From an uncultured Methanolobus sp. (GTDB lineage: Archaea; Halobacteriota; Methanosarcinia; Methanosarcinales; Methanosarcinaceae), in NCBI GenBank assembly GCA_963675495.1, contig OY776215.1, positions 1,696,001 through 1,760,000 of the forward strand: a stretch of 64,000 bases of DNA, read 5' to 3'. The translations under genes and the position numbers were made by a program. The first letter of the stretch is position 1. The number at the start of each line of letters is the position of its first letter. Below, in pieces: positions 2,717 to 47,048 of the stretch. The notes beneath the pieces were generated by a model. The model was not told the DNA's origin and made no database searches. It saw nothing but the letters and a program-made list of their open reading frames with translations.

Positions 2717-4120
2717 TTACTCGATCTGCTTTCTGAATTTGTCACAGCAGTTGATGTCAATTCCAAGAAGTTTCTCGATGTTCATCTTAGCTGCAATTCC
2801 TTTTGGAGCACCTGCAACTGAAGTGATTACACCGATACCAAGCTCTTCCCTTAGTTCCCTCATTACATACTCATCACTGAGGTCGTCTGTGGTAACGTCA
2901 AGCTTCTTGGCAACGAAGTCCTTTGCTTCTCCAATTCTCATGCTCTTTGCAAGCTGCATCCTTGCAACAAGGTCACCAGCAGCTCTGATTCCGCTCATTC
3001 CGGAAGTCATTATGTGGGAGATCGGCATACCCATCGGGTCGCCGACCCCTATCTATATTCCATCCACGCCGGCGACTTCGACCATCGCCTTGCTTGCTCT
3101 TGAAACAGCGTCAATTGTTGGGGTCTCGAACATTGGGATACTGCCTACACCCATTCCCATGTTCACATGACAGGGGATAGAGGAAGCTTTAACGGCTGCC
3201 TTGGTGAAGGTAACAGCTCTTCCAAGGTTCCATGCAGATGATTTACTGGTATTTGTGTTGCATACAGGACCAAAGACATTTGCACCGGCCTTTGCTGCAA
3301 GTGGAGCCTGCTGATGTGGCCACAGACCTGCAAGTACTGTACCGTCATATTCCATCTCACCGTGAAGACCGAGCAAAAGCTCTCCAGCCATACCTGCTTC
3401 GATATAGATGTCAGGGAACTGCTTTCTCAGTGCCTCGATTGCATGAAGGGAGGCAAACATGTCACCGTCTCCTGCAGCACCGATAGTATCGAAGTTAACA
3501 CCATCTGCACCGGATGCCATGAGTTTCTGCATGATCCATACAGTGTCTCTTGTAAGGTGTTCAGCTGAATGTTCCATGGATTCCTGTGCTTCCTTGATCT
3601 TGAAAGCTTTCATAAGGTCGCCTGGGTTCTCGAAAGGACCATCAGGTGTGTAGTACAATCCCATGTTTGGCATTGCACCGTAAAGAAGAGGAACTACCAT
3701 GTTCTGCTGGCAGACTTCCATTGTCTGCATTTCCTGTGAGATCACAGGTTTTACAGGTTTGTAACTGTAGTCGATGTGACCTAATTCCATTGTGTCAGCA
3801 CCGAATGCTCTCTCGTGCATCATTGCACCAACGAGCCTGCTGGATGGGATACCTACTCCGCTGTTACCCTGGTCACCGTCAATTCTGATGGTTCCGATAT
3901 CGTGGGTCACTGGGACTTCCATACCTTGTTCGACACCAACCATCCTTGAAGGCATGGTTAAGATTTCTACAAGTTTGTCGATCTCATCTTCACTAAGGTT
4001 AGGGATCTCACCAAGGTCTGCAGCATCTGCCATACCTGCTTTAAGGTCAGCGATGATCTGCTCCTTTGTCATGAAAATACGCTTTCCGTCTCCCATTCTA
4101 AGTTTATATTCTGTTGCCAT
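2717..4120 (-). CDS. mtbB: Dimethylamine methyltransferase MtbB copy 1, 467 aa, pyrrolysine at codon 356
   Basis: Starts [12 protein letters not shown] (ATG 4120, SD GAGGTG). In-frame TAG at 3053-3055 in context GVDGI-O-IGVGDP. Confidence 0.97.
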
Positions 4121-4773
4121 AAAAATCACCTCATTTAAAGCAGGAGTTCCTTAGCTTTTATTACAGCTTCACTGGCGTTCTCTGCATAGCAGTCTGCACC
4201 GATCTTTTCAGCCCATGCTTCTGTTGCTGGAGCTCCGCCGACCATTACCTTGATATTATCTCTAATACCGTTCTCTTTGAGCATTTCAATGACTTCTTTC
4301 TGGGCACCGAGAGTGGTTGTCATAAGAGCGGACATACCTACCATGTCTGCATTTGTTTCTTTGATCTTGTCAATGAAGTTCTGCAGAGGAACATCCCTGC
4401 CGATATCGTGGACTTCAAAACCTGCTGACTGAAGCATGGTTGAGACAATGGACTTGCCAATGTCATGAACGTCACCTTCGACAGTACCGTTTACTATAAC
4501 GCCGAGTTTCTTGCTTGAAGCATCTGCTGGCATATCTGCTTCAAGGAGAGCGACACCTGCTTCCATTGCGCCTGCGGCCATCATTACATGAGGAAGGAAC
4601 ATCTTACCTCTCTCAAAACGGATACCAACTTCATTCATTCCTGCTGCGAGACCTTTCTCGATGATCTCAGGAGCTGAAATACCTTCGCCTCTTGCTTTTT
4701 CTACAGCTGCTGTTACAACATCATTCTTGCATGTGATAACTGCATCTGATAATTCTTTGAACATTTCTTCTTT
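2719..4773. repeat. ~2.05 kb direct repeat copy A (mtbC-mtbB); copy B at 28879-30933
   Basis: Line-by-line near identity at offset 26160, with only scattered substitutions. Confidence 0.95.
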
Positions 4774-4779
4774 GCTCAT
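4135..4779 (-). CDS. mtbC: Dimethylamine corrinoid protein MtbC copy 1
   Basis: DVHDIGK motif; upstream of mtbB. Confidence 0.93.
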
Positions 4780-6624: not shown

Positions 6625-6908
6625 TTTACTACCTCCAACTTTTTAAACCTTCATAAATATGATCTGCCAATAGATGACAGTCTATACTCTTTCCGGGAAA
6701 CCGGTATTGGGAAGGGGATACGTAAAAAAGATGATGCAGTACCAGTCCTCCAACTGATAAATAATCATCTTCTTTCGGGGTGCATTAAAAGCGGGAATAT
6801 AAGGGAAATTCCCAAAGCACCCATAAAAGAAAGATAAAACTTCTGAACGTTATAATGTAGCCGAAGGATGTACCGAATGATACATCCTCACAACTAACTA
6901 TACTGATT

Positions 6909-7556
6909 TCAGAAGAGTGCGTTCAATTTTGCAACTACATCAGTTGCATTCTCGCCGTAGACATCTGAACCGATTTTGGTTGCCCAGTCCTGAGTTACAG
7001 GAGCGCCGCCAACCATTGTCTTCAGTGAGTCGCGAATACCTGCTTCTTTAAGCTGCTCCTCGATCTGGATCTGGCTGACCATTGTAGTGGTCATAAGAGC
7101 AGATGAAGCAACTACATCAGCACCTACTTCCTTTGCCTTCTCAACATAAGCTGCGATTGCTACATCTCTTCCGAGATCAACAACTTTGAAACCAGCGATC
7201 TTGAGCATTGTTGCAACAATGTCCTTACCGATTGAGTGGATATCTCCCTCGATTGTGCCGATAACAATTGTTCCCTTGTTTGCTGCTTCTGCACCCTTTG
7301 CTTCAAGTATTGGAGTAAGTACAGCTACTCCTGCGCTCATTGCCTCTGATGCTGCAATAACATGAGGAAGGAATAATGTGCCTGCCTCGAACTGATCTCC
7401 TACTTCGTTCATAGCTGCGGTGAAACCGTCCTGGATAAGGTCTACAGGATCTACATCTGCATCAATACCTTCCTGAGCTGCTTCTGCTGCTGCTTCATTA
7501 TCAAAATCTAAAATCGCTGCTTTTGCTTTTGCGATAATCTCTTCTTTAGTTGCCAT
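6909..7556 (-). CDS. mttC: Trimethylamine corrinoid protein MttC
   Basis: DIHSIGK motif; directly downstream of mttB. Confidence 0.94.
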   Translation of the reverse strand: MATKEEIIAKAKAAILDFDNEAAAEAAQEGIDADVDPVDLIQDGFTAAMNEVGDQFEAGTLFLPHVIAASEAMSAGVAVLTPILEAKGAEAANKGTIVIGTIEGDIHSIGKDIVATMLKIAGFKVVDLGRDVAIAAYVEKAKEVGADVVASSALMTTTMVSQIQIEEQLKEAGIRDSLKTMVGGAPVTQDWATKIGSDVYGENATDVVAKLNALF

Positions 7557-7575: not shown

Positions 7576-9066
7576 TTACATGCTGGCTCTGAATGCCTTG
7601 TCAGCTTTCTCTACAACTGCCTGCATGTCTTTGAGCAGATCAGCGTCTATTGGTGTTACTTCGTGGTTCTTCATGATGTCAACGACTTTTTCATGAGCAA
7701 CCGTTGCGATATCCTTTGAGCCTGCCATTTCCCAGTCACCGAACATCAGTCTGTCAATGAGCATTGGGCTGGATGGAAGGTCAATGTTCTGCCTTGTAGT
7801 CTTGTGTGCAAGGAAGTTGTTTCCTATACCAACCTGGTCTATGGATTCAACTGCCATTGTCTCTTCGTCAACAGGAATTCCCTGCATTGCCTTCTTGGTC
7901 ATTGAGATCATGTCGTTGTCAAGAACGAGCTGCTCAAGTGAGAAGGTCATACCGAGCTCAAGCATACCTGCACCGTAAAGGGTGTTTGCACCAGACAATG
8001 CGGGGAAAAGAGTAGTCATTGTTTTCTCATGGCCAGCCTGGCCATCAGGTATCTTGGCATCAGCCTACGAGCCTGCTACAAATGTAGGAAGACCATAATA
8101 CTGACCGAGTTTTGCAACAGCTGCACTGATAAGTGCAAGTTCAGGAGAACCTACAGGAGCAGTACCTTTCTTCAGATCGAATGTTGTGGTAGAACTACCA
8201 TACCATACTGGTGCACCTGGCTGAACCAGCTGTGCGAGTACGATACCTGAGATTACTTCAGCGTTGTGTGTTACAAGTGTACCTGCAAGGTGAACTGGAG
8301 ATGAACCGCCAGCCATTGCCATACTGAGTACGTTAACAGGCGTACCGAACTTTGCGCCCTTTATGATAACCTGACATGCGTTCTCACTGAGTTCCAGTGG
8401 GCTTGTAGGACAGAGCAATGTTGAGAATATAGGCTTCTTACGTGCTTCCTCATCATCCCCACCGAAGTATGCGGTAGCGATTCCCTGATAGTAATCTACA
8501 TTCTCGCCTACAGGGTCAATGTGGTGGAAGTGCTTTGTTGTGTTCATCAGTGGAGTCAGTGTCTCGTGGACATCCTGTGCTCCCTTTCCTGCCCAGTCCC
8601 TTGCGGAAACTGCAAGTGAATAGTAGTTGATATTCTCTGCCCAGTCACAGAGCTTTGCTGTGTCTGCTACGTCCTTTTCTGTCGAGTCAACAGTTGAATA
8701 TTTACCAGGTGCATCATAGTTGCACATCTTGACACCGGTGCCGAAACAGGTCCAGTGTACCTTTCCTTTGTGTTCCTGCTTGACGTTGTTCTTCTTGTCA
8801 CGGCCCCAGAGGACGAACTTAGAAGGAGCGTCACGAAGTGCTCTGTTAACTACAAACTCAGGAATCTTAACGATCTGTGTTTTTTCATCGACTAAACAGC
8901 CACCTTCTTTGAAGATAGCCCTTGCTTCAGCATCTGATACCTGGATACCAGTGTTAATGAAGACATCCATTGTAGCGTAGTGAAGTGATCTGAGATCATC
9001 CTCAGAGAAAAGCTCCAGACTAACGCCTTCTAATGGTCTTCTACCTGGGTAATATTGTTTTACCAT
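7576..9066 (-). CDS. mttB: Trimethylamine methyltransferase MttB, 496 aa, pyrrolysine at codon 334
   Basis: ATG 9066 with GGAGGT SD. In-frame TAG at 8065-8067 in context TFVAGS-O-ADAKIPD; GTAPVGSPE motif. Confidence 0.97.
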
Positions 9067-9197
9067 TTTCTTAACCTCCAATTATAATTCAATTCCAAGA
9101 TCTATCAAAGATAATCTTGAAGATGTGAACATGCATTGTAGCAATATGTTCTTGCTGAAGTGTAGAATGAAATAGTATATAAAGGTGACCTATGGAA

Positions 9198-9674: not shown

Positions 9675-11609
9675 ATGAGTTACAGCCTTGGCATAGATGC
9701 AGGAGGAACGTACACAGATGCAGTTCTCCTAAGAGATGATGATGAAACCATACTTCAATCCAGCAAAGCATTGACAAGCTACCCTAATCCACTGGAAGGG
9801 ATAAAACAATCTATTGACGGATTAGACCCCATATGTCTCCAAGATGTGAAAGTTGTGTCTGTTTCAACTACACTTTCCACAAACAGCATCCTTGAAGGTA
9901 CCGGCTCCCCCGTTGCCATGATACTTATTGGAAATTATGATATTAAACAAGAACTTCCAACCCAACATTTTTTAAAGGTTAGCGGAGGTCATGACCATAA
10001 TGGTATTGAAACCGATGATCTGGACCTCGAATCTATCAAGGAATTTACATTAAAGGTCAAGGACAAGGTTTCAGCTTTTGCAATATCTTCATACTTTAGT
10101 GTGAGAAATCACGACCATGAACTAAAAGCAAAAGAAATGATAATAGAACTTACAGGCCGTCCTGTAGTCTGCAGCTATGAACTCTCTCAAGATCTCGGAG
10201 CTTTTGAAAGAGCTGTGACAGCATTCCTGAATGCACAATTGATACCTGTAACTGAGAGATTCATGACAACCGTTGAAGCGGAAATAAAATCAAGAGGAAT
10301 TGATGCAAAGATATTCATGCTTAAATGTGATGGATCTGTCATTGGTATCCAGAGTGCCCTCAAAAAACCAATTGAATCCATTTTTTCAGGACCTGCTGGA
10401 AGTCTTGTAGGGGCTTCATTCCTTGCAAAAAGAGAAACATGTGCCGTCATAGATGTAGGAGGTACCAGCACAGATATTTCAGTGATACACAATGGAGTTC
10501 CTGATATGAGTGATTCTGGTGCTGTTGTTGGTGGATGGAAAACCAGGGTCAAAGCCATACGTATGGAAACATCGGCAATGGGAGGAGATAGCCATGTGTG
10601 GGTAAAAGGTAAAGATATCAACATCGGTCCCAGAAGAGTCATCCCTCTGTGCAGAGCTGCTGTACTCTACCCGGATTTCCTTGAACAACTCAAAACAAAT
10701 CCCATCCCTTCAAAGATACGCATGGGTATCAATTATCAGCCGACAAAATTCTACCTGAGAACGGATTATGAGGAACTGGAGGCCAGCAAAGAGGAAAAAG
10801 AAATACTTAATGCTATAAAAAAGAGTCCTACATCAACTACTGAGATATTCAACCGGATAAAAAAATACCCTTCCAGCACCATCTTGGATAGCCTCATACA
10901 GAAAAGACTGTTGCAACCTATAGGTTTCACACTCACTGATGCACTACATGTACTTGGCGAGTACACGGAAAGAAATGTCGAAGCCGCCAATACAGGTGCT
11001 GATATGCTTTCTTCAATTGTAGATATGGATAGGTATGAATTTGCCAGACACATCAAAAAAGAATTTGCAAAAAACATGGCATGTGACCTCATATCATTCT
11101 TCCTTGAAGGAGTGGACAAAAACGAAATAAGGAAGATATTTGATATCCAATCACCTGCAAAGTTCAAAGTAGATGTTCCTATTGTATTAATAGGAGGGCC
11201 TGTAACTGCTTTTGTAGAAGACCTACAAGAAATACTGAATGCAGAAATTATCCTTCCTGAATATTCCAGTGTAGGAAACGCTGCCGGTGCACTAGCTGCA
11301 AAAGGCATCCGAAGATTTGAAGTGCTTATCAGACCTGCTTCAATGGCAGCTCCTGATTGGGAATTCCTTGTGTTCTCTGAAAATGGAAAAAGTAATTTCT
11401 ATGAATATCAGGAAGCTCTTGACTATGCGGTTAGCATGGGGGAGAAGACAGTTCTTAACTATATGAAAGATGCCGGACTTGACTCTAATCACATAAAAAT
11501 AGATGTTAAAAAAGAGGAAATTATTCCATTGGGATGGAAAACACCAATGGAAACAAAGCTTGTAGTGCTTGGGGTTGGTAACAGGAACACTGAACAGGAT
11601 TGTTGTTAA
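9675..11609 (+). CDS. Hydantoinase/oxoprolinase A family (ASKHA ATPase) protein, paralogue 1
   Basis: Motifs LGIDAGGTYTD, FSGPAGS, VIDVGGTSTD, MGGDS, GNAAGA. Confidence 0.9.
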   Translation: MSYSLGIDAGGTYTDAVLLRDDDETILQSSKALTSYPNPLEGIKQSIDGLDPICLQDVKVVSVSTTLSTNSILEGTGSPVAMILIGNYDIKQELPTQHFLKVSGGHDHNGIETDDLDLESIKEFTLKVKDKVSAFAISSYFSVRNHDHELKAKEMIIELTGRPVVCSYELSQDLGAFERAVTAFLNAQLIPVTERFMTTVEAEIKSRGIDAKIFMLKCDGSVIGIQSALKKPIESIFSGPAGSLVGASFLAKRETCAVIDVGGTSTDISVIHNGVPDMSDSGAVVGGWKTRVKAIRMETSAMGGDSHVWVKGKDINIGPRRVIPLCRAAVLYPDFLEQLKTNPIPSKIRMGINYQPTKFYLRTDYEELEASKEEKEILNAIKKSPTSTTEIFNRIKKYPSSTILDSLIQKRLLQPIGFTLTDALHVLGEYTERNVEAANTGADMLSSIVDMDRYEFARHIKKEFAKNMACDLISFFLEGVDKNEIRKIFDIQSPAKFKVDVPIVLIGGPVTAFVEDLQEILNAEIILPEYSSVGNAAGALAAKGIRRFEVLIRPASMAAPDWEFLVFSENGKSNFYEYQEALDYAVSMGEKTVLNYMKDAGLDSNHIKIDVKKEEIIPLGWKTPMETKLVVLGVGNRNTEQDCC

Positions 11610-14176
11610 GAGCCTAACTCCTTTGTAATAGAAGAAATGGCTATGAGGACATCCTGTCCTCCCCAATCACTAATTTTAAACTTTGACTTGACTGGAACAA
11701 GGATTCCTTCCTTACTCACCAGAGGAATCTCACAAGTGGATGATTTACCTGACATTATCTCATCTAGATTTGAAAGAACATCATCTTCCCAGTTTTCAGG
11801 ATAGAGCATCAAAAAATCTTTCATTACAAGGTCTTGTTCAGAATATTTCAGATTTTGGACCAAAGCTTCATTTACATGAAGGACTCTCCCCTCGATATCC
11901 ATAATAAATACAATCTCATCAAGGGCGTCAAGCAGGGAATTAAGATTATTTTTGCTTTTCTGGGAACCTGGATCACTTTTCATTCTGGAGATCATGATTC
12001 CTACCTGATTTGCAACTGTTTCTATAAGATTCCTTGAATTTGCCGGTATCTCAAGTTCGGTATGCGAACCAAGGACAATAGCAGCAACCATTTTGTCATT
12101 AAATTTAACAGGTATGAATGCCATTGCCTGTAGCCCTTCAGAATCACGGCCCTCGCCATGCACCATCGTGTTGATCTCAGCGAAATATTTGTATACCGGA
12201 TAACCTGTGGTGAAAAGACGTGCTATTAGTGTGTTCGAACCGAAATGAGATACTGAAGCCACAAATTTTTCAGAAAGATTTCGATAAGCAGCTGCATTGA
12301 AATCACCAGTTACCTGGTCAATCATATAAATGATACCGGAATCTATTGCTTTTGCCTCTAGTGTAAAATCAAGCAGCTTCTCAAATGTTTCCTCAAGACC
12401 TGCGGTTTCCCCCAGAACATTGTCAAGATCACACTCGATACGCATGAAATTATTGGCATGCTTGCGTTCAGTTATATCGACAATAATACCCTGAAGGTAA
12501 TCCACAATACCATTCTCATCGTAGTGAAGCACAGTCCTTTCGTCAACCCATCTCACTTCACCTGCTTTTGTCAATATCCTGTATTCCTGGCTGAAATCAG
12601 AAAAACCTTCCCTTGAAGCTCTTTCTACTTCCGTTCTCACACTTTGAAGGTCAGAAGGATGAATAATATCACCATAAATAATCTTGCCTGAAATAAAATC
12701 TGAAACATCATAGCCAAATTGCTCTATGTTCTCAGAAACAAATTCCACAGGCCAATCCTGTTCAGGCTTCCAGAGAAATACTATTGCAGGGCTTGAACTC
12801 ATGATGGATTCAAGCATCCGACGCATCCTGAGTGCTTCAGAAAGAACATCCTTTGTTTTCTTGTATTGCACAAGTTTCCACATACCTTCCATTAGGAGGG
12901 TTAACTGGCGGGCATCGGATTCATCATAATCCAATATTTTGTTAGCTATCCCGGCAACTGCAACTACCTGATCATTTTCAAATACAGGAATCGTTATGTG
13001 GCGAAAGATTTTTTCATTTATTCCTGGATATATATCATTAACATGTTCGGAATCATAATCCTTATTGACTATAACAGCTTTGCGTTCACGTATAGCTTCG
13101 CCCCAAAAACCTGTAGATCTTACAGGATGCATAAAGGGTTCTTCACCTAAATAAGAATTAAGATCGCTAGGCCACTGATATGTTTCAAGCATATTCTTAT
13201 CTTCATTCAAAAATTCAAGATAACCTATTTTGCTATTGGTAAGCTCTGCAGCATTCTGGATGGCATACTCAGCAATCTCATTCAACGGGGAATCCTGCAT
13301 CTGATGTAGTTTCAAAAGAGCTTCAAGGCGCATCTCATTCAGATGTATGGTTTCCTGGGCTTTTTTGCTGGATGCAACATCTTCCATTATTCCAATGCCC
13401 CCCAACAAAGACCCATCGTCATCCATCACAGGAGAAAAACTTGCTTTGATCATCATTACTTTCCCACTTATACTGGAAACATACTCACCTTCATAGTAGC
13501 TAGGATTTCCCAGGAAAACAACATCGATAGCACTTCGCAAATTTTCATCATTTAACGATGAAAGAACATTGAAACCAATTATCTTCTCCGCAGGTGCACC
13601 AATTACATCCGAACAGCTCTTATTACAGTGGGTAATAATGCCATTTTCGTCAAAATAGAGGAGACCCACAGGAGACCTTTCAATTATTATCTGATATTTT
13701 TGTCCGGTTTCCAGCAGTTGCCTCTCAGTTTTCTCAAGCTCTGTATTATCAATAAGTATACCCTGGAAATGAGTGATGTTTCCTCCTGCATCCCTATTTA
13801 TAAATGACCTTTCGGTCACCCAGCGAACTTCACCTGATTTTGTCAGTATGCGGTAATTAAGAGAAAAATAAGAGGTGTTCTTTTTCTCAGAATGTTTCTT
13901 CACCTCTAGAAGGATCCTGTCAATATCATCAGGATGGACAATATCACCATAAACCAACTTCCCTGTTGTGAAATCTTCAGGCGTATATCCTAGTCGAGTA
14001 ATGTTTCCAGATATAGATTCAACGGGCCATTTACCTTCTGCATTCCAAAGAAAAGAGATAACCGGACTACTATTGTAAACAGCTTCCAGTTTTTTGTCAA
14101 CAGGATCAAGAGCAGACAACTTTGCCCCATACGTTTTATTTTTACCCGAATCTTTAACAACTGAAATATTAATCAC
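11606..14176 (-). CDS. Cytoplasmic multi-PAS/GAF sensor protein with no kinase output domain
   Basis: PAS signatures (WPVEFVSEN, IHPSD, YRILTKAGEVRWV, GIIVDITERK) and GAF segments (VAGIANKILDYDESD). No H-box or HATPase motifs. Start position uncertain. Confidence 0.85.
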   Translation of the reverse strand: MINISVVKDSGKNKTYGAKLSALDPVDKKLEAVYNSSPVISFLWNAEGKWPVESISGNITRLGYTPEDFTTGKLVYGDIVHPDDIDRILLEVKKHSEKKNTSYFSLNYRILTKSGEVRWVTERSFINRDAGGNITHFQGILIDNTELEKTERQLLETGQKYQIIIERSPVGLLYFDENGIITHCNKSCSDVIGAPAEKIIGFNVLSSLNDENLRSAIDVVFLGNPSYYEGEYVSSISGKVMMIKASFSPVMDDDGSLLGGIGIMEDVASSKKAQETIHLNEMRLEALLKLHQMQDSPLNEIAEYAIQNAAELTNSKIGYLEFLNEDKNMLETYQWPSDLNSYLGEEPFMHPVRSTGFWGEAIRERKAVIVNKDYDSEHVNDIYPGINEKIFRHITIPVFENDQVVAVAGIANKILDYDESDARQLTLLMEGMWKLVQYKKTKDVLSEALRMRRMLESIMSSSPAIVFLWKPEQDWPVEFVSENIEQFGYDVSDFISGKIIYGDIIHPSDLQSVRTEVERASREGFSDFSQEYRILTKAGEVRWVDERTVLHYDENGIVDYLQGIIVDITERKHANNFMRIECDLDNVLGETAGLEETFEKLLDFTLEAKAIDSGIIYMIDQVTGDFNAAAYRNLSEKFVASVSHFGSNTLIARLFTTGYPVYKYFAEINTMVHGEGRDSEGLQAMAFIPVKFNDKMVAAIVLGSHTELEIPANSRNLIETVANQVGIMISRMKSDPGSQKSKNNLNSLLDALDEIVFIMDIEGRVLHVNEALVQNLKYSEQDLVMKDFLMLYPENWEDDVLSNLDEIMSGKSSTCEIPLVSKEGILVPVKSKFKISDWGGQDVLIAISSITKELGS

Positions 14177-14941
14177 TTCCTAAATAGAATCAATAAATTT
14201 GAATAACTTTTTTAATGGAATAAAATTCATAATCTTGTGTAACTTGCTCTAATGTTAGTTATTATTCATATTTTATCATGGGAATCTTGTATTGGTATAT
14301 AATAATACCGGCGAGAGTTTTTAATCAATGGTACATAAGAGTTGTGATTAAAGACAAAAAATGCAACTATTCACTAAAAAAAAGACATATAATGCTTATT
14401 TTCAAATGAAAGTTCATGCACCTACTCACAAAATATATATGCACATTGCTTTAGTTTCAATCCTGAACAAAGCCACACCCAATTTATTAAGTTGTTTTTT
14501 TATGCATATATATCTTTCTTCTTAATTTTAACAACAATGTGTCAGATGAGTAAAGCTATAAACAGCAGCATCAGGTACATTCGTGCTATAAATGAGGTAA
14601 TATACAGGCATATTGTGATGCAAAAATATAAATAGGAGATGTACCATAATAGAAAATAGAGATTAAACAAGTTGCCTTGATTTAAATTGGGTCTATATCC
14701 TGGCAGATAATCTCTGTAGAAATTCTACCTCTTTCAATTGCTCCTTTGTTTTACCTCCACTAAAACAGAAAGGAGCAAATATTTCTACAAACCAATCCGT
14801 TTTTTGAGGGTTATAAATGACTTTATCAAAAACAAGATGTATTGAAATTTTTAGTTTTATGGGTACCCTACCCTTAAAGACCACATCTACTGTTTTCAAG
14901 AATAATATCCTAAATGCTGAAAGTTCCCTGGAGGGTCTCTG

Positions 14942-16897
14942 ATGCATTACAGTCTTGGAATAGATGCCGGAGGCACCTATACTGATGTTGCGATAATCAG
15001 GGATTCAGATGGGAGCATAGTAAAATCCAACAAATCGCTTACAACTTATCCCGACCTGTTAATAGGTATCAGGAACACTTTGGATCAACTGGACCCTCAC
15101 TATCTTGAAAACGTTCACTATGTATCAGTATCAACTACTCTGGCAACTAACAGCGTTCTGGAGAAAACTGGTTATCCAGTAGGGCTAATCCTTGTTAACG
15201 ATGCAGACATTCCAAACAGAGCAAAGATAGAGAATTTTGTTCTTGTAAAAGGAGGGCACAATAGTGCAGGAAATGAAGTATGCCCCCTTGATATAGATTC
15301 TGTACGGAACTTCGTTCTCAGGATCAAAAATAAAGTTTCTGCTTTTGCAATATCATCATATTTCAGCGTGCGCAATCCTGAACACGAATTGAAGATAAAG
15401 GAACTAATAACCGAACTTACAGGTCTTCCGGTAGTTTGCGGACATGAACTGTCACAGGACCTTGGAGCATACGAAAGAGGTATCACAGCCTACTTGAATG
15501 CTCAATTGATCCCCATAGCCAGCCAGTTCATGGAATCAGTCACTTCTGAGATAAAAAGAAGGAATATAAACGCAAAAATAATGATGCTCAAGTGTGATGG
15601 CTCTGTGGTCGCTATAAATGAAGCCTTGAAAAAACCGATAGAATCAGTGTTTTCAGGACCTGCAGCAAGTCTTGTGGGAGCAGCATATCTTTCAGGAAAT
15701 GAAGATTGCGCCGTCATAGATGTGGGTGGAACAAGTACAGACGTTTCACTGATACATCGTGGAATACCACAACTTAGTGAAGCAGGTGCTGTTGTCGGGG
15801 GCTGGCAGACGAAGGTCAAAGCAATACGTATGGAAACATCTGCAATGGGTGGGGACAGTCATGTGTGGGTGAGGAACCACGTCATCAACATTGGCCCAAG
15901 AAGGGTTATACCACTATGCTTAGCTGCTGTGGAATATCCCGAGATCGTTGAAAAGCTCAAACAAAATCAGGTAATCTTACGTAACCAGATAGGTGAGAAC
16001 CTGCAACCTACTAAGTTCTTCATCAGGTCAGGACTTGAAGCTTCAGATATCAGTTCTGCAGAAGAAGAATTACTATCAAGGATTGGAGATAGGCCACTAA
16101 CTGTCAGTGAAATATACTGGAATGAGAACAGGCTTCCAAATCCAGGAACACTTGACCTGTTGATACAAAAAAGGCTTATCAAGACCATCGGATTTACTCC
16201 CACCGATGCCCTGCATGTTCTTCAAGAATATACGCAGTGGAACAAAGAGGCATCTTTACTTGGAGCAAGTATACTGGCTGCACTTGCCGGAATTGATGAA
16301 GACGAGCTTTGCCTCCAAATAAAAAATGATGTAGCCAGGAATATGGCATTGAATTTAGTATCTTTTTTACTTGAGGGCATAAGTAAAGAAGAGATAGAAA
16401 AGGTCCTTATGGGCAAATTCTTTGCGAGGTTTAAGTCGGAACTGCCTGTTGTTCTGCTTGGGGGACCTGTCGGTGCCTATTCAAAAGAGCTCGCCAGATT
16501 CGTAGATGCACAAATACTTGTACCAGATAATTGTAGTGTGGGAAATGCCGTCGGTGCGGTTGCAGGAAAAGGCTCCAAAAAACTGGAAGTCCTTATAAAA
16601 GCAAATTATACAGAATCAAAATATAATCTGAAAACATCATCTTTTGTAATTTTTTACCCTGGAGGAAGGGAAGAGGTCTCATCGTACCACGAAGCCCTGG
16701 AATTTGGAGAAGAGATCGGACCTAAACTCATTATGAAGTACATGACCGATTCAGGAATGGACAGCGATGGAGTAAACATTGATATGCATCGGAATGATAT
16801 TATTATACACGATGGGGGACTTCCTGTGGAAACAAGACTCAGTTTTTCGGGTACAGGTCAGGCAAGGAAGAATAGGGCAACAATGGAGGTAGATTAA
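14942..16897 (+). CDS. Hydantoinase/oxoprolinase A family protein, paralogue 2
   Basis: Same motifs as 9675..11609; GGAGG SD. Confidence 0.9.
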   Translation: MHYSLGIDAGGTYTDVAIIRDSDGSIVKSNKSLTTYPDLLIGIRNTLDQLDPHYLENVHYVSVSTTLATNSVLEKTGYPVGLILVNDADIPNRAKIENFVLVKGGHNSAGNEVCPLDIDSVRNFVLRIKNKVSAFAISSYFSVRNPEHELKIKELITELTGLPVVCGHELSQDLGAYERGITAYLNAQLIPIASQFMESVTSEIKRRNINAKIMMLKCDGSVVAINEALKKPIESVFSGPAASLVGAAYLSGNEDCAVIDVGGTSTDVSLIHRGIPQLSEAGAVVGGWQTKVKAIRMETSAMGGDSHVWVRNHVINIGPRRVIPLCLAAVEYPEIVEKLKQNQVILRNQIGENLQPTKFFIRSGLEASDISSAEEELLSRIGDRPLTVSEIYWNENRLPNPGTLDLLIQKRLIKTIGFTPTDALHVLQEYTQWNKEASLLGASILAALAGIDEDELCLQIKNDVARNMALNLVSFLLEGISKEEIEKVLMGKFFARFKSELPVVLLGGPVGAYSKELARFVDAQILVPDNCSVGNAVGAVAGKGSKKLEVLIKANYTESKYNLKTSSFVIFYPGGREEVSSYHEALEFGEEIGPKLIMKYMTDSGMDSDGVNIDMHRNDIIIHDGGLPVETRLSFSGTGQARKNRATMEVD

Positions 16898-18823
16898 ATG
16901 CAATATAGTCTAGGAATCGATGCAGGAGGAACTTATACTGATGCGGTGATAATAAGGAATGAAGACAGAAAAGTTATCGACTCGAACAAGGCACTCACAA
17001 CCTATCCTGATCTGCTGACCGGTATAGAGAATGCTATGGACGGACTGGACAACAAATACCTGAGTGACATTAAACTTGTATCAGTATCCACAACTCTTGC
17101 CACCAATACAATACTTGAGAAAACAGGGTATCCTGTAGCTCTCATCCTTATAGGAAAACACACCCTGCCTGCAAATATGCCTATCACTGACTACGTTGTA
17201 GTAAACGGAGGACACAATGTAGTAGGAACCGAAGACGAAGTGCTTGATATTGAAACTGTAAAAGAATATGCCCTGAAAATGAAAGACAGAGTGTCCGCAT
17301 TTGCTATTTCCTCATATTTCAGTATCCGAAACCCTGAACATGAACTGAAAGTAAAGAACCTTCTTAATGAGCTGACAGGACTCCCGATAGTCTGCGGTCA
17401 TGAGCTGTCGCAAGATCTTGGAGCCTATGAAAGGGGTGTTACTGCATACCTTAATGCACAACTTCTCCCCATAGCGGACCAGTTCATAAATGCTATTATT
17501 ACCGATATTGAAAAAAGAGGGATCGATGCAAAACTAATGATGCTCAAATGTGATGGCTCTGTCATCGGAATCCATGAAGCCATGGAAAGACCAATAGAAT
17601 CAATATTTTCCGGGCCTGCTGCCAGTCTCATGGGTGCATCCTTCCTCTCTAAAAATGATACATGTGCTGTTATTGATGTAGGTGGAACAAGCACCGACGT
17701 TTCACTAAATCACAACGGTCTGCCAGAACTTGTTGATACTGGAGCCGTGGTAGGTGGATGGCATACAAAGGTCAAAGCCATACGTATGGAAACTTCCGCA
17801 ATGGGTGGAGATAGCCACATATGGATAAAGAACCGCAATATCAATATCGGGCCTCGAAGGGTGATACCACTTTGCCTTGCTGCTGTAAAATATCCCGGGT
17901 TCATGGAACAACTCAAATCAGGTAGAACACCTTCAAGGGTTCCACTTGCAGAGAATATCCAGCCCACAAAGTTCTTTGTAAGAACAGGAAAGGAAGCACC
18001 AAAACTTAGTGAATTTGAAAAAAAGCTTCTTGGAACAATTGGCGCAGAACCCGTTTCAATTAATGATATCTTCTGGAATATGAAAACTCCGGTATCTGCA
18101 GACCAGATAGATGCATTGATACAGAAAAGACTTGTCCAGGCCATCGGATTTACCCCCACCGATGTACTGCATGTGCTTGGAGAGTACACAGTATGGAACC
18201 GTGAAGCTTCACTTACAGGTGCAAAGATACTTGCAAGGCTTACATCCATGGATGAAAATGAGCTTTGTGTCCACATCAAAAAAGAAGTAGCTATCAACAT
18301 GGCGCTGGACCTTATGAGTTTCATGTTCAAAGGTGTTGAAAAATCTGAGATCGAGAAAATAATCCGTGGTGAGTTCTTCTCACAGTTCAAAGTGAATGTA
18401 CCGGTGATCTTACTTGGAGGACCTGTTCATGCCTATGTTGAAGAGCTCAACAAGCTGATAGATGCAACTATTATAGTTCCCGAACATGCAGATGTGGGAA
18501 ATGCAGTTGGAGCACTTGTTGGAAAAGGTGTCAAAACCGTAGATGTACTTATTAAGGCATTCTACCAGAAAACGAAGAGGACTATTCTAGTATTCTCTCC
18601 AATGGAAAGAAAGGAGTTCTCACTTTACTCAGAAGCTCTGGAATACGCAACGCAGCGTGGGGAGAAACTAATACACGAATATATGGAAAACTCGGGTATC
18701 AAATCAGAAGACGTAAATATCGAAATCAAGAGAGAAGACATCACAATGATGGAAGAGGGCGGAGCTCCTGTTGAAACAAAGCTCGTGTTCCTTGGAACAG
18801 GAATTCCACAAACGGAAAAATGA
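16898..18823 (+). CDS. Hydantoinase/oxoprolinase A family protein, paralogue 3
   Basis: Same motifs; its ATG directly follows the TAA of paralogue 2. Confidence 0.9.
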   Translation: MQYSLGIDAGGTYTDAVIIRNEDRKVIDSNKALTTYPDLLTGIENAMDGLDNKYLSDIKLVSVSTTLATNTILEKTGYPVALILIGKHTLPANMPITDYVVVNGGHNVVGTEDEVLDIETVKEYALKMKDRVSAFAISSYFSIRNPEHELKVKNLLNELTGLPIVCGHELSQDLGAYERGVTAYLNAQLLPIADQFINAIITDIEKRGIDAKLMMLKCDGSVIGIHEAMERPIESIFSGPAASLMGASFLSKNDTCAVIDVGGTSTDVSLNHNGLPELVDTGAVVGGWHTKVKAIRMETSAMGGDSHIWIKNRNINIGPRRVIPLCLAAVKYPGFMEQLKSGRTPSRVPLAENIQPTKFFVRTGKEAPKLSEFEKKLLGTIGAEPVSINDIFWNMKTPVSADQIDALIQKRLVQAIGFTPTDVLHVLGEYTVWNREASLTGAKILARLTSMDENELCVHIKKEVAINMALDLMSFMFKGVEKSEIEKIIRGEFFSQFKVNVPVILLGGPVHAYVEELNKLIDATIIVPEHADVGNAVGALVGKGVKTVDVLIKAFYQKTKRTILVFSPMERKEFSLYSEALEYATQRGEKLIHEYMENSGIKSEDVNIEIKREDITMMEEGGAPVETKLVFLGTGIPQTEK

Positions 18824-18996: not shown

Positions 18997-19068
18997 GGAA
19001 ATCAGATCAGGTTGATCGAATGGACTCTAAATCCGTTCAGTCGGGTTAAATTCCCGGGGTTTCCGCCA
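18997..19068 (+). tRNA. pylT: tRNA-Pyl (anticodon CUA)
   Basis: 72 nt GGAAATCAGATCAGGTTGATCGAATGGACTCTAAATCCGTTCAGTCGGGTTAAATTCCCGGGGTTTCCGCCA. CTA at 19027-19029, 6-bp anticodon stem, 3-nt variable loop, encoded CCA. Confidence 0.97.
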
Positions 19069-28876: not shown

Positions 28877-30280
28877 TCACTCGATCTGCTTTCTGAATTT
28901 GTCACAGCAGTTGATGTCAATTCCAAGAAGTTTCTCGATGTTCATCTTAGCTGCAATTCCTTTTGGAGCACCTGCAACTGAAGTGATTACACCGATACCA
29001 AGCTCTTCCCTTAGTTCCCTCATTACATACTCATCACTGAGGTCGTCTGTGGTAACGTCAAGCTTCTTGGCAACGAAGTCCTTTGCTTCTCCAATTCTCA
29101 TGCTCTTTGCAAGCTGCATCCTTGCAACAAGGTCACCAGCAGCTCTGATTCCGCTCATTCCGGAAGTCATTATGTGGGAGATCGGCATACCCATCGGGTC
29201 GCCGACCCCTATCTATATTCCATCCACGCCGGCGACTTCGACCATCGCCTTGCTTGCTCTTGAAACAGCGTCAATTGTTGGGGTCTCGAACATTGGGATA
29301 CTGCCTACACCCATTCCCATGTTCACATGGCAGGGGATAGAGGAAGCTTTAACGGCTGCCTTGGTGAAGGTAACAGCTCTTCCAAGGTTCCATGCAGATG
29401 ATTTACTGGTATTTGTGTTGCATACAGGTCCAAATACGTTTGCACCGGCCTTTGCTGCAAGTGGAGCCTGCTGGTGTGGCCACAGACCTGCAAGTACTGT
29501 ACCGTCATATTCCATCTCACCGTGAAGACCGAGCAAAAGCTCTCCAGCCATACCTGCTTCGATATAGATGTCAGGGAACTGCTTTCTCAGTGCCTCGATT
29601 GCATGAAGGGAGGCAAACATGTCACCGTCTCCTGCAGCACCGATAGTATCGAAGTTAACACCATCTGCACCGGATGCCATGAGTTTCTGCATGATCCATA
29701 CAGTGTCTCTTGTAAGGTGTTCAGCTGAATGTTCCATGGATTCCTGTGCTTCCTTGATCTTGAAAGCTTTCATAAGGTCGCCTGGGTTCTCGAAAGGACC
29801 ATCAGGTGTGTAGTACAATCCCATGTTTGGCATTGCACCGTAAAGAAGAGGAACTACCATGTTCTGCTGGCAGACTTCCATTGTCTGCATTTCCTGTGAG
29901 ATCACAGGTTTTACAGGTTTGTAACTGTAGTCGATGTGACCTAATTCCATTGTGTCAGCACCGAATGCTCTCTCGTGCATCATTGCACCAACGAGCCTGC
30001 TGGATGGGATACCTACTCCGCTGTTACCCTGGTCACCGTCAATTCTGATGGTTCCGATATCGTGGGTCACTGGGACTTCCATACCTTGTTCGACACCAAC
30101 CATCCTTGAAGGCATGGTTAAGATTTCTACAAGTTTGTCGATCTCATCTTCACTAAGGTTAGGGATCTCACCAAGGTCTGCAGCATCTGCCATACCTGCT
30201 TTAAGGTCAGCGACTATCTGCTCCTTTGTCATGAAAATACGCTTTCCGTCTCCCATTCTAAGTTTATATTCTGTTGCCAT
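28877..30280 (-). CDS. mtbB: Dimethylamine methyltransferase MtbB copy 2, pyrrolysine-containing
   Basis: In-frame TAG at 29213-29215; protein differs from copy 1 by a single I/V change. Confidence 0.97.
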
Positions 30281-30933
30281 AAAAATCACCTCATTTAAAG
30301 CAGGAGTTCCTTAGCTTTTATTACAGCTTCACTGGCGTTCTCTGCATAGCAGTCTGCACCGATCTTTTCAGCCCATGCTTCTGTTGCTGGAGCTCCACCG
30401 ACCATTACCTTGATATTATCTCTAATACCGTTCTCTTTGAGCATCTCAATGACTTCTTTCTGAGCTGGAAGGGTTGTGGTCATAAGAGCGGACATACCTA
30501 CCATGTCTGCATTGGTTTCCTTGATCTTGTCAATGAAGTTCTGCAGAGGAACATCCCTGCCGATATCGTGGACTTCAAAACCTGCTGACTGAAGCATGGT
30601 TGAGACAATGGACTTGCCAATGTCATGAACGTCACCTTCGACAGTACCGTTTACTATAACGCCGAGTTTCTTGCTTGAAGCATCTGCTGGCATATCTGCT
30701 TCAAGGAGAGCGACACCTGCTTCCATTGCGCCTGCGGCCATCATTACATGAGGAAGGAACATCTTACCTCTCTCAAAACGGATACCAACTTCATTCATTC
30801 CTGCTGCGAGACCTTTCTCGATGATCTCAGGAGCTGAAATACCTTCACTTCTTGCTTTTTCTACAGCTGCTGTTACAACATCATTCTTGCATGTGATAAC
30901 TGCATCTGATAATTCTTTGAACATTTCTTCTTT
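28879..30933. repeat. ~2.05 kb direct repeat copy B (mtbC-mtbB)
   Basis: Matches 2719-4773. Confidence 0.95.
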
Positions 30934-30939
30934 ACTAAT
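30295..30939 (-). CDS. mtbC: Dimethylamine corrinoid protein MtbC copy 2; probable non-canonical ATT start
   Basis: Near-identical to copy 1. The homologous start codon is ATT, 6 nt after GGAGGT. Confidence 0.88.
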
Positions 30940-31353
30940 AATAATACCTCCATCACTTTTTGCCTCCAGTTGGTAGAGAACATGAAACTTGAAGAGCAAT
31001 CAGTTATAGTAAATCATAAGAAGAAAATGTATATATCATAAACTCAATCAAATGTGCTTACTGTGTTTGAATTCACTACCAACACTGACATGCTCTATTG
31101 TCTTGATAGTATTACAACAGCGTTGTAATCTTGGGTTATCATTATAATGAGTAGATATCTTATAGGCAGGATATTGAAAGTATGAAATAGCACTTCGAGT
31201 AAAAAGATTAATCAAAATAGTCAGTGCTATTTTTTATTTAAAGATCTATTCTATATCTATTATATGTAGCTGCTACAAATAAAAAAATTCTGTATTGGTA
31301 AGATGCTGAATGTTAGAGAATTAATTAGTAACTTATCACATGAAATTCTTGTC

Positions 31354-35268: not shown

Positions 35269-36645
35269 TTAGAATACAAGTCCAAGCTCTTCGAGCTTTT
35301 TACGTGCGCCATCGTAGACCTTCACATACTCATCGGTTGGTGTTACGGTAGCAACATCGTAACATTCCTGGAATGTCTTACCAGCTGGTGCATTTGCATA
35401 ATCGTTCTCGTAGAGCTTCACAAGGTTGTCAAGTATCTTGTTGACCTCTCCAATGTCCATACCGGCAGTTGCCCTTGCAGCTTCTCCCATCATCCTTGCT
35501 TCCATACCTGTGGTCTTGTCCTGGACAACACCCTTTGCAGATGCAACACCGGAGAGGATCTCACGGCCGGATGCTGTGTCAGTTATGGACTGTGCGGATG
35601 CTTCAAGCAGGCACATCTCGGTACATGGACCTGCACATGGATAGTACTGGTTACCTGAGAGCATGTCAGTGAATTCTGAGATTGTTGCACATGCCCATCC
35701 AGCGATCTGAAGGGTTTCACGGGTGTTTGTGGATCCCCAGCGGATGTGGACCGGACCATCAAGATGCCAGCTTGCATTGCTCATTACAAATGCATTGATG
35801 TGGGTTGCGACATCAACAATTGTGGTTTCTTCTATGCCACCGGCATATCCACCAAAGATAGGCATCTGTTCGTCCATGATGATGTCACTGTTAGCATTGT
35901 AGTGTGCAATAACACTGATAGCATCAAGGTCGATCTTAAGCTCATTGAGCTGTGATACTTCGTGACTGTCGCTGCAGGCCTGGCCACCGGCACAGTCTGA
36001 AGCGATATTTCCCTGAGCGGACAGGGAAGTCTCTGGTCCCTATATGCCCATGCCTGGCCTTCCGGCCATTGCACATGCTTGTTTGATCAGCCTTGTCTCG
36101 GTCTTGGCAGCCAGAATCTCATAAGGGCTCTTTGGAATTGTTGGCTTTCCACGAACAGACATAATGACACCGTCAACAATAGTGTCGACTTCTTTCTCAA
36201 GAGCGTAACTCATGTGGACAGGCATGAATACGTTTTCAGAAATTGGGGAACCTGTTGGACCACCCTGTATTATTGGTTTTCTTTTGTCACCAACACTTCT
36301 CTTCTGAACCCTTACAGCATCTCTGCCGGTTCCGAGTGTGAACTCTTTCTGGACATTGTTGATAGCGTCCCATATCTCGTCTTCAGTATATTTTACTACA
36401 CGGCTTGTATCGGTACAGAATATACCACAGTCAAGAAGCATTTCAAAACCTGCTTTGAACAGGTTTTCCATCATGTCCTTGTCGGTTGGAACGAATTCGT
36501 TCTTGAAATCAAGTTTATATTTTTGCTTGAGCTCCATTGCCTTCATAGGAATGGTCATAAGGTCCCAGTCGTCCTGGGTCATCTTTGTACCTTTCTTTGC
36601 ACGCTCGTAGAATTCATAACAATCTAATGATCTTGAAAATGTCAT
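35269..36645 (-). CDS. mtmB: Monomethylamine methyltransferase MtmB copy 2, pyrrolysine at codon 202
   Basis: In-frame TAG at 36040-36042; same length and context as copy 1. Confidence 0.97.
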
Positions 36646-36658
36646 AATATATACCTCC

Positions 36659-37309
36659 TTATCCCATAAGTTCTAATGCTACACGAGCTGCATCTGCTGC
36701 ATTCTCTGCTGTTGCATCTGCGCCGATCTCTGCGATCCAGCCATCTGATACTGGTGCACCACCGAACATTATCTTTACAGAATCCCTGAGGTTTTCTTCT
36801 ACAAGAGCTTCAACGGTGTCTTTCTGACCCAGCATAGATGTGGTCATGAGCGCAGAACCTACAAGGAGTACTTTACTACCAGCAAGCTTTTTGATCTCAT
36901 CCATAATGTCATCATTTGGTACGTCCACACCAAGATCAACTATCTTGAAGCCATTTGCACCAAGCATTGTTGTTACAAGACGGTGACCAATATCATGAAT
37001 ATCGCCTTCCTGTACAAAAGTGATGGCTGTTCCTACACCTTCTCCAGACTTTGCATCTGCGAGTAAAGGAGTAAGGATTTCCATTGCAGCGTTCATTGCC
37101 TTTGCAGACATCATGATCTGCGGAAGATAGATCTCGGCTGCTTCAAATTTGTCCCCTATGATCTTCATGCCTACTGAAAGGCCGCCTTCTATTGCTTCAA
37201 CAGGACCGATACCTGCATCCAGAGCTTCCTGTGTAATTGCTGCACAACCATTTATATCCTGATTCACAATTGCATCTCTAAGTTTGTCTAACATTTCCTG
37301 ATTTCCCAT
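36659..37309 (-). CDS. mtmC: Monomethylamine corrinoid protein MtmC copy 2
   Basis: DIHDIGH motif; ATG 37309 after AGGTGG. Confidence 0.94.
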   Translation of the reverse strand: MGNQEMLDKLRDAIVNQDINGCAAITQEALDAGIGPVEAIEGGLSVGMKIIGDKFEAAEIYLPQIMMSAKAMNAAMEILTPLLADAKSGEGVGTAITFVQEGDIHDIGHRLVTTMLGANGFKIVDLGVDVPNDDIMDEIKKLAGSKVLLVGSALMTTSMLGQKDTVEALVEENLRDSVKIMFGGAPVSDGWIAEIGADATAENAADAARVALELMG

Positions 37310-37797
37310 TAAATCCACCTTTTGTATTTTTCATATTTTTTTGAAGTTGTTCTTACAGAATTGCATCTACCAGTACAACTATTCTTGGAAACAACTTCCT
37401 TAAGAGAAGTTATCCAATTGATAACGACTGCACGTAAGAGAATTAACTGACAGAATATAGCATAATTCATCCCGATTTTTCAACATTTACAGTACATAGC
37501 TCATCAATTATTACTTTAAAAAAGGTATGAAGATTTCAGTTTCTGACTGGCTATTAAAGGGGAATCATAATTATCATAGTCCTTGTGAATTGGCACATGT
37601 CTTGTGAATTATAAGTATCCATGTGACTTTACCTATAAATTAAATTAATATAAGGTTAGATTAAAACGTCATTCGGGGAAGGTAAAAAGGTATTTGTGCT
37701 ACTTAACAAGGATTTTGACCAATGGATTTAAGGAAACTCACAATCAAAAGTCCCTGAAAATAGGACTATTGCAGCAGAAACGGGGAAGATGATGGGT

Positions 37798-43385: not shown

Positions 43386-44852
<1,467 letters not shown>

Positions 44853-44861
44853 GGTGGTATC

Positions 44862-47047: not shown

Positions 47048-47048
47048 A

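Follow-up and report, generated by a model that had tools for sequence, protein, structure and literature searches.

HyuA-like ATPases without a HyuB partner in a Methanolobus methylamine island belong to a family recurrent beside B12 methyl-transfer genes

What do three hydantoinase-A-like (HyuA-like) ATPases do among the methylamine methyltransferase genes of a methanogen? The genes lie in the 2.87-Mb, single-contig genome of an uncultured Methanolobus sp. (assembly GCA_963675495.1, contig OY776215.1), within a stretch of 64,000 nucleotides (positions 1,696,001 to 1,760,000), hereafter the window, which is a methylamine island. Corrinoid methyl carriers fall into inactive states, and both methylotrophic methanogenesis and the bacterial demethylation of quaternary amines and osmolytes rely on them. 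A preliminary description of the window had put the three genes forward as candidates for an undescribed system of accessory ATPases. We find that they are typical members of a large HyuB-less family of ASKHA ATPases with a HyuA fold, recurrent beside genes of B12-dependent methyl transfer, and the window adds no new kind of system. For the role of the family we favor, at about an even chance, an ATP-driven accessory factor of corrinoid-protein maintenance that acts with DUF1638 and RamA and is general to methylotrophic B12 systems. The genes and the inserted domain on which the argument turns are as follows.

9675..11609, + strand: HyuA-like paralogue 1, 644 aa; divergent from mttB/mttC and convergent with a PAS/GAF gene.
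10737..10925, + strand: winged-helix-like insert of paralogue 1, residues ~355-417, placed from models and fold matches.
14942..16897, + strand: HyuA-like paralogue 2, 651 aa; first of a tandem pair.
16898..18823, + strand: HyuA-like paralogue 3, 641 aa; second of the tandem pair, coupled to paralogue 2.

All three reading frames are open and intact, and in three of three proteins the Pfam gathering cutoff is exceeded for both Hydant_A_N (E 2e-30 to 1e-31) and Hydantoinase_A (E 6e-30 to 3e-33). The two phosphate motifs that had been reported for them were confirmed, with GIDAGGTYTD at residues 6-15 and IDVGGTSTD at 259-267 in each protein; pairwise identities are 53% (1 versus 2), 56% (1 versus 3), and 60% (2 versus 3). 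All 116 collected family proteins have intact nucleotide motifs, and conservation of these motifs is still at least 90% among 118 distant cluster representatives. The Hydantoinase_A alignment covers only profile positions 1-145 of 291 in paralogues 2 and 3, and Pfam lists no Hydant_A_C domain for any of the three. Homology to canonical HyuA was limited to residues ~5-320, both in profile searches of the PDB and in hhalign comparisons with the genome's own canonical HyuA. The AlphaFold model (predicted local distance difference test score, or pLDDT, 86.6; predicted template modeling score, 0.83) nevertheless has a HyuA-like fold along its whole length.

We compared the proteins with HyuA-type subunits of known systems, namely, acetophenone carboxylase alpha (5l9w_b), caprolactamase alpha (6yra_A), acetone carboxylase beta (5svc_B), and N-methylhydantoinase (9h03/7hk5). 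The fold matched 5l9w_b (ApcA) with Z 27.6 (root mean square deviation 3.4, 498 residues aligned) and 6yra_A with Z 26.7 (root mean square deviation 5.4, 511 residues aligned). The ASKHA phosphate and adenosine motifs are shared, and the tandem pair recalls Apc alpha/alpha'. The trio differs from the HyuA type in that it has no HyuB partner, a C-terminal half unrecognizable by sequence, and an inserted winged-helix-like domain, and its genes keep company with B12 methyltransferases, not with ketone or lactam catabolism.

Could the three proteins still be classical hydantoinase or oxoprolinase A subunits that use a B subunit encoded elsewhere? Pfam and the source annotations do call them hydantoinase/oxoprolinase, and the overall fold points the same way. 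Among the 51 window reading frames scanned with Pfam there was no Hydantoinase_B, as the preliminary description had stated, and the whole-genome search for this domain (PF02538) found it once, as part of a 1211-aa HyuA-HyuB fusion that precedes the window by ~80 kb. A free B subunit is absent from the genome, and the partner encoded elsewhere that had been envisaged did not turn up, the single HyuB being fused to its own canonical HyuA. NCBIfam equivalogs scored far below their cutoffs (CapA, 98-110 bits versus 1000; ApcC, 52-81 versus 1500; ApcA, 26-41 versus 1250). With canonical homology ending at residue ~320 and no Hydant_A_C listed, a classical A subunit is exceedingly improbable, and the earlier view that these are not classical hydantoinases stands.

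The same genome holds more proteins of this type. A whole-genome Hydantoinase_A search gave 11 matches. One is the 1211-aa fusion and one a 332-aa protein; the other nine, 641-684 aa long, are of the same type as the window trio (identity, 44-84%). The distance to mttC is 2.1 kb for paralogue 1 and 7-9 kb for the tandem pair, which shares the island. Elsewhere, one paralogue sits between mtaB and mtaA in a RamA-like/CobW/mtaC/mtaB cluster. Another is flanked by an Mts-like corrinoid-methyltransferase fusion on one side and a TCP-1/cpn60 paralogue on the other, with URO-D, RamA-like, and DUF6951 genes coming next. Of three others, one adjoins an M48 peptidase and 5-enolpyruvylshikimate-3-phosphate synthase, one converges with a GAF/PAS kinase, and one has a PNPOx-like gene and an S-adenosylmethionine methyltransferase on its two sides. 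Thus, the idea of an orphan trio with one ATPase for each of the Mtm, Mtb, and Mtt systems was not supported, the paralogues outside the window lying by mtaCB, the mts-like cluster, mcrA, and unrelated genes. A B12-binding gene lies at most 2.2 kb away from three of the nine, a proximity expected for 3.3% of positions (binomial tail, 0.003).

Further observations were made on these loci. One paralogue (C1:773662-775614; L015:12567-14615, - strand) is directly downstream of mcrBDCGA and has an 84%-identical second copy 5 kb off, and this mcr-linked copy hints at clients beyond corrinoid proteins. The TCP-1/cpn60 paralogue (L016:10479-12104) and CobW-type GTPases (L017:4368-5501) stand beside HyuA-like genes in the mts-like and mta clusters, and the same company recurs in Methanosarcina, Methanomassiliicoccales, and some bacterial loci. 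The 332-aa frame (C1:2414759-2415568, locus L003) encodes a B-less Hydantoinase_A protein of a short methanogen type; judging from weak NCBIfam matches of a relative, it is probably of the MfnF or tetrahydromethanopterin (H4MPT)-linked kind.

We evaluated how widespread the family is. With the full-length query, 116 of 121 Methanosarcinaceae genomes gave matches, at 2-9 copies per genome, and 13 of 14 genera were represented. Among the remaining five genomes, an MtxC-type corrinoid protein is likewise missing from three, and the other two (92% complete) have one each. The C-terminal half, used as the query, found 54 of 54 Methanosarcinaceae genomes and gave two weak matches among 346 other genomes of the phylum. 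A profile search of 1.84 billion cluster representatives (50%-identity library) returned 13,134 clusters at E <= 0.001, of which 1,656 passed E <= 1e-30. Almost every one of the top 150 representatives was a full-length match, and distant ones matched profile positions 1 to ~636. Named members belong to Candidatus Methanomethylophilaceae and Planctomycetota, and loci reached via the alignment of fused relatives belong to Brocadiaceae, Pirellulales, Armatimonadota, Desulfobacterota, Phycisphaerae, Lentisphaerae, Spirochaetales, Acidobacteriota, Sporomusa, Desulfosporosinus, and Methanomassiliicoccales. Trees were built with FastTree, whose support values are Shimodaira-Hasegawa-like only. In the tree of 141 rows, the nine paralogues and the Methanosarcinaceae representatives formed one clade (support, 99-100), apart from the 117 others. 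Therefore, the nine copies represent a lineage-specific expansion.

Gene order was surveyed at 73 loci encoding 116 proteins. Each window gene has its own old orthologue clade. In the paralogue-1 clade, mttB, mttC, and the PAS/GAF gene were kept in 11 of 14 rows; Methanococcoides sister copies follow a homologue of MtmB that is free of pyrrolysine (Pyl), and Methanosarcina members adjoin DUF1638 and a DEAD helicase. The paralogue-2 clade includes tandem members of Methanomethylovorans and Methanosarcina, paralogues 2 and 3 being a conserved pair. At 13 Methanosarcina loci, the order is CobW, mtaC, mtaB, tandem HyuA-like genes, and two FilR1 genes, which is the MA4391-4398 arrangement given in the accessible passages of PMC11619418. 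A further clade, placed 0.2-4.3 kb downstream of mcrA, unites the genome's own copy with four loci of Methanolobus and Methanomethylovorans (L082, L085, L087, and L091). Among unfused relatives from Methanomassiliicoccales and bacteria, 19 of 29 have a corrinoid or methyltransferase match within 7 kb; these neighborhood counts come from tblastn with archaeal queries and are lower bounds.

The claim of an undescribed system, made in the preliminary description, is not supported, for the methyltransferase neighborhood is already in print, without a function, in the accessible parts of PMC13729102, PMC11619418, and PMC9768040. The family is widespread and annotated, its neighborhood has been remarked upon, and its function is unassigned in print. 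A role specific to methylamines or to pyrrolysine is not supported.

A second protein family, DUF1638, is linked to some of these ATPases by fusion or adjacency. Nine of the top 150 representatives are DUF1638-HyuA-like fusions of 892-959 aa with DUF1638 at the N terminus (E 1e-35 to 4e-42), and eight of the nine fall in one clade. In at least nine genomes, drawn from four genera of Methanosarcinaceae, a separate DUF1638 gene stands 0.3-2 kb away from a HyuA-like gene; DUF1638 also adjoins paralogue-1 orthologues at two loci (L036 and L038). It was present in 55 of 55 sampled Methanosarcinaceae genomes that carry HyuA-like genes, in 1-8 copies; the correlation of the two copy numbers is weak (Spearman 0.40, n=55), and the genomes are related and genome size confounds it. 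The window trio is not fused to DUF1638, and the window has no DUF1638 gene. DUF1638 itself gave no meaningful solved relative at E <= 1 and no NCBIfam family.

Work on bacteria links DUF1638 to corrinoid methyl carriers. In Phaeobacter inhibens, DUF1638 and a RamA-like protein were cofit with a split B12-dependent methionine synthase, and methionine rescued the mutants; in the passages available, the authors noted that the two genes share a phyletic pattern and offered no specific function for DUF1638 (Price et al. 2018, PMC5764234). N-osmolytes raise the levels of both DUF1638 and a RamA-like protein in Ruegeria pomeroyi, along with those of MtgBCD, according to the accessible text of PMC12478193. 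This module of DUF1638 and a RamA-like (DUF4445) protein has the same class of clients as that proposed here, corrinoid methyl carriers, and the accessible passages of both papers show no HyuA-like component. DUF6951 may be a further member of the corrinoid activation set. At one locus of Desulfofustis glycolicus (L127), a RamA-like gene and DUF6951 (6631-6969) are followed by a DUF1638-HyuA-like fusion, and the RamA-like/DUF6951 pair also occurs in the mts-like cluster of the Methanolobus genome (DUF6951 at L016:14905-15219).

What, then, does the inserted domain do? The preliminary description had seen a helix-turn-helix-like segment in each protein. The models give ~60 residues (~355-417) a winged-helix-like fold of beta-alpha-alpha-alpha-beta-beta topology, so that part of the claim was upheld; no significant Pfam helix-turn-helix family was found. 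Modeled alone (pLDDT, 77.9), the insert resembles winged-helix domains modestly: among 48,161 chains the best match had Z 6.8, 18 chains had Z >=5, and none reached Z 8. In place of a short loop of canonical HyuA, the insert occupies the stretch from the "VGP" strand to the "TDA" helix, and it is directly followed by an invariant GFTxTDALHV helix that aligns with Apc and is shared with canonical HyuA. Its columns are 97% occupied on average in the 118 distant representatives, with T419, T421, and D422 at least 90% conserved. The isolated insert and the C-terminal domain had no significant Pfam family, the lone weak match being DprA_WH (E 0.003) in paralogue 3.

An inserted winged helix invites the view that these are regulators, ASKHA sensors or ATPases that, by a logic like that of ROK proteins, would bind DNA or a transcription factor and tune the neighboring methyltransferase genes. 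The insert is family-wide, and the conserved neighbors include PAS/GAF-only proteins, FilR1/Msr-type regulators, and sensor kinases. In the portion of the AmzR preprint available, a frameshift in MA4396 is also reported in one of four lines evolved for switching between methanol and trimethylamine; it came with an amzR mutation, so that its own effect is not separated. Across 109 proteins, however, the insert is about neutral overall, its net charge averaging +1.4 and ranging from -2 to +7, and distant relatives do not keep K410/R411 of its third helix. Its top matches are protein- or peptide-binding winged helices, namely, those of GATOR1, the MetAP2/Ebp1 insert, and the recognition elements of MccB and TglI for ribosomally synthesized and posttranslationally modified peptides, and MarR/ArsR-type DNA binders rank lower, at Z 4.5-5. 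The fusions with DUF1638 and the stand-alone housekeeping context in bacteria are unlike a local transcription factor, and AmzR-like and FilR1-type regulators are already at the locus. With no significant Pfam match to a DNA-binding family, we consider a regulatory role unlikely, though worth keeping in view.

Nor does a stand-alone enzyme acting on a small molecule account well for the data. Such an enzyme would be a kinase or ligase of a cofactor, a methylated osmolyte, or a corrinoid precursor, in the manner of MfnF, which has a HyuA fold and no B subunit. Canonical HyuA subunits are substrate kinases (accessible passages of PMC5214803), and a fused relative is weakly similar in NCBIfam to MfnF and to an H4MPT-linked protein, i.e., B-less enzymatic relatives exist. 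Conserved residues could form a metal or substrate site (H148 in 103, C166 in 100, H168 in 107, and H425 in 105 of 118 distant representatives), and several paralogues have no methyltransferase close by. Nine paralogues of 44-84% identity with system-specific synteny nevertheless suit protein clients better than one metabolite, the canonical "VGP"-"TDA" loop is replaced by the winged-helix-like domain, and no candidate substrate pathway is conserved around the genes. We regard this alternative as improbable.

A variant residue was noted at one of these conserved positions. Residue 168 of paralogue 1 (10176-10178) is Tyr, where paralogues 2 and 3 and 107 of the 118 distant representatives have His (motif C-G-H-E-L-S). 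That it marks a dead enzyme was considered and rejected, since Y replaces H in 11 of 82 pattern-matched family proteins from several clades.

Binding to a corrinoid protein was addressed by co-folding paralogue 1 with MttC, each entered as an alignment, alongside three controls. The score was 0.33 (the median of 0.56, 0.33, and 0.12), the best control scored 0.00, and the verdict was "weak support." The mark used is one that 116 of 157 solved complexes and 2 of 215 mismatched pairs attain; at a score of <=0.60, only 18 of those 157 solved complexes attain it, together with both passing mismatches. The runs agreed in at least 87% of contacts, with a partner pLDDT of at least 80. Modeling thus lends weak support to MttC binding, nudging the odds toward it and leaving it unsettled.

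The preliminary proposal of ATP-dependent accessory factors for corrinoid methyltransferase systems fits the conserved synteny, the DUF1638 fusions, and the weakly supported MttC co-fold. In the scheme we favor, ATP would be bound and hydrolyzed in the intact ASKHA site of the HyuA-like protein, which would dock on a corrinoid protein or methyltransferase complex, possibly via the winged-helix-like insert. Acting with DUF1638 and the reductive activase RamA, it would then condition or repair the cofactor site, which could consist of loading or exchanging the cofactor or of rendering Co(II) reducible. The tandem pair is probably a heterodimer, by analogy with Apc alpha/alpha'. Substrate, binding partner, and chemistry are what we infer here, starting from the observed fold, motifs, absence of free HyuB, synteny, and fusions. 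In keeping with the scheme, strain DCMF co-induces a protein called HydA with a glycine-betaine MttB-family cluster, according to the accessible passages of PMC9768040.

Several points weigh against the accessory-factor scheme. The methylamine methyl-transfer system was reportedly reconstituted by Ferguson in 2000 and 2009 with no helper besides RamA, so HyuA-like ATPases would be non-essential for catalysis. RamA is named as the ATP-dependent activator of methylamine:coenzyme M methyl transfer in the consulted part of a review (PMC7374477). The co-fold pass is weak, a grade described as "more often wrong than right unless likely beforehand." Four of the nine paralogues are 70-293 kb from any B12-binding gene, and Methanosarcina orthologues of the tandem pair lie between YgjP-like peptidase/ABC and arginine decarboxylase/EamA genes, with no methylamine genes within 7 kb on each side. 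DUF1638 is wider in the phylum (135 of 401 genomes) than the HyuA-like subfamily (57 of 401), and none of the DUF1638 genes in the Methanolobus genome is within 9 kb of a HyuA-like gene, the nearest pair being 9.7 kb apart. Among fusion loci, 6 of 39 have a corrinoid or methyltransferase match within 7 kb, or 9 of 39 when RamA or CobW is counted (both lower bounds), and housekeeping neighbors were found at 7 of 8 fusion loci scanned with Pfam. A biochemical or genetic test of any family member was not found in the open-access literature; subscription journals and bioRxiv supplements could hold more. The supplement and text passages available for PMC13044021 make no mention of a HyuA-like neighbor of mtqB.

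To our knowledge, RamA is the sole activation component with a known mechanism. Like RamA, RACE, and RACo, the HyuA-like proteins are ASKHA ATPases encoded in the same clusters, and the RamA-type ones act on corrinoid proteins. RamA has Fe-S and RACo_C_ter/Raco_middle domains, whereas the HyuA-like proteins match none of these: at E <= 0.001, Pfam lists neither the RACo_C_ter ASKHA domain nor the Fe-S domain of the RamA/RACE signature for the three, and their match to 4c1n_I is generic, at Foldseek rank 50. GlmL/MutL and the large subunits of diol and glycerol dehydratase reactivases (2d0o_A and 1nbw_C) share the ASKHA fold (Z 12-13.5) and service B12 enzymes. Here, too, the match is to the generic ASKHA core, and the clients of those proteins are adenosylcobalamin isomerases, not methyl carriers. 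Pfam MutL (PF13941) aligned with ~50-60 N-terminal residues only, at 23.8, 31.7, and 33.9 bits versus a cutoff of 27, and the GlmL equivalog in NCBIfam (NF040745) scored 19-27 bits versus a cutoff of 475.

A more specific version of the accessory role is suggested by MAP, the methyltransferase activation protein of Methanosarcina barkeri (Daas et al. 1996, as known through the review PMC5007285). According to the part of this review available, MAP undergoes ATP-dependent autophosphorylation and thereafter activates the corrinoid methanol methyltransferase MT1, and no later publication has dealt with it. HyuA-like genes adjoin mtaCB in Methanolobus and Methanosarcina, and no sequence of MAP turned up in the literature consulted; PMC8048578 has no data on MAP subunits, and other authors have labeled RamA-like genes MAP, as read from a figure legend. 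The HyuA-like ATPase, alone or with the ~30-kDa DUF1638 protein, would then be the never-cloned MAP-type activator, possibly autophosphorylating and docking via the insert, that readies the Co(II) cofactor for loading or reduction ahead of electron delivery by RamA or ferredoxin, with paralogues dedicated to the methanol, methylamine, and methylsulfide systems and perhaps to methyl-coenzyme M reductase. We put this forward as a speculative idea that is probably wrong as it stands; if true, it would supply a missing third component of B12 methyltransferase activation in archaea and bacteria. In any case, a second conserved, multicopy ATPase family that travels with corrinoid systems points to an unstudied step in keeping B12 enzymes alive, and a vague "hydantoinase" annotation becomes a testable hypothesis and a candidate for the MAP activity.

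Does the position of the tandem pair beside pylT point to pyrrolysine instead? The relevant neighbors in the window are listed here.

451-2497 and 35269-37318: two copies of mtmB/mtmC.
2717-4779 and 28877-30999: two copies of mtbB/mtbC.
6909-7556, - strand: mttC, neighbor of paralogue 1.
7576-9081, - strand: mttB, with one in-frame TAG at 8065; divergent neighbor of paralogue 1.
11606..14176, - strand: PAS/GAF-only sensor protein, 856 aa, between the HyuA-like genes; assigned from Pfam, NCBIfam, and synteny.
18997-19068, + strand: pylT (tRNA-Pyl, anticodon CTA), 173 bp past paralogue 3 and 24 kb from pylS.
43452-47834: pylSBCD.
47849-49483: RamA, carrying RACo_C_ter ASKHA and Fe-S cluster domains (Pfam).

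The minus strand ahead of paralogue 1 carries mtmB/mtmC, mtbB/mtbC, an EamA-type permease, and mttC/mttB; beyond pylT follow sensor kinases, FilR1-type regulators, the second mtbBC and mtmBC, an mtbA-like gene, pylSBCD, and RamA. All five methylamine methyltransferase genes of the window have one in-frame TAG apiece, and pylT is the sole tRNA. The layout given in the preliminary description, with one HyuA-like gene divergent from mttB (across a spacer of 593 bp) and two in tandem just before pylT, was found to be correct. The stop codon TAA of paralogue 2 (16895-16897) abuts the ATG of paralogue 3, with GGAGG just 5' of the junction; therefore, the two are translationally coupled.

Factors linked to pyrrolysine could serve its salvage, the repair of adducts, or the handling of tRNA-Pyl. 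The sole link to pyrrolysine is the adjacency of gene 3 and pylT, conserved in Methanolobus and Methanomethylovorans: pylT is directly 3' of the paralogue-3 orthologue in the window and at loci L080, L081, and L084 (4 of the 5 loci of these genera seen). In Methanomethylovorans (L084) the order is tandem pair, pylT, pylS, pylB, and in the window pylT has stayed with the pair though pylSBCD is 24 kb off. On the other hand, pylT was found at 0 of 5 Methanosarcina loci that have the orthologous pair, and it appears, by eye, to have its own AT-rich, TATA-like stretch upstream. The other paralogues and relatives accompany systems that are free of pyrrolysine (methanol, methylsulfide-type, and bacterial MttB-superfamily ones) and occur in bacteria with no pyrrolysine context. 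The earlier suggestion of pyrrolysine repair or salvage is thus not supported, and a role of this kind is very improbable. In two other Methanolobus loci, the gene that comes after pylT is the PAS/GAF gene, not pylS.

The PAS/GAF-only protein (11606-14176, - strand) is a conserved neighbor of HyuA-like genes, and no output domain was found in it. By domain architecture it resembles the AmzR methylamine-sensing repressors of M. acetivorans described in the accessible part of the AmzR preprint. The two mtbB copies are both 99% identical to the reference copy and the mtmB copies 95-99%, so the duplication of these genes appears to be recent or homogenized. RamA directly follows pylD on the same strand, so the activase may be cotranscribed with the genes of pyrrolysine biosynthesis.

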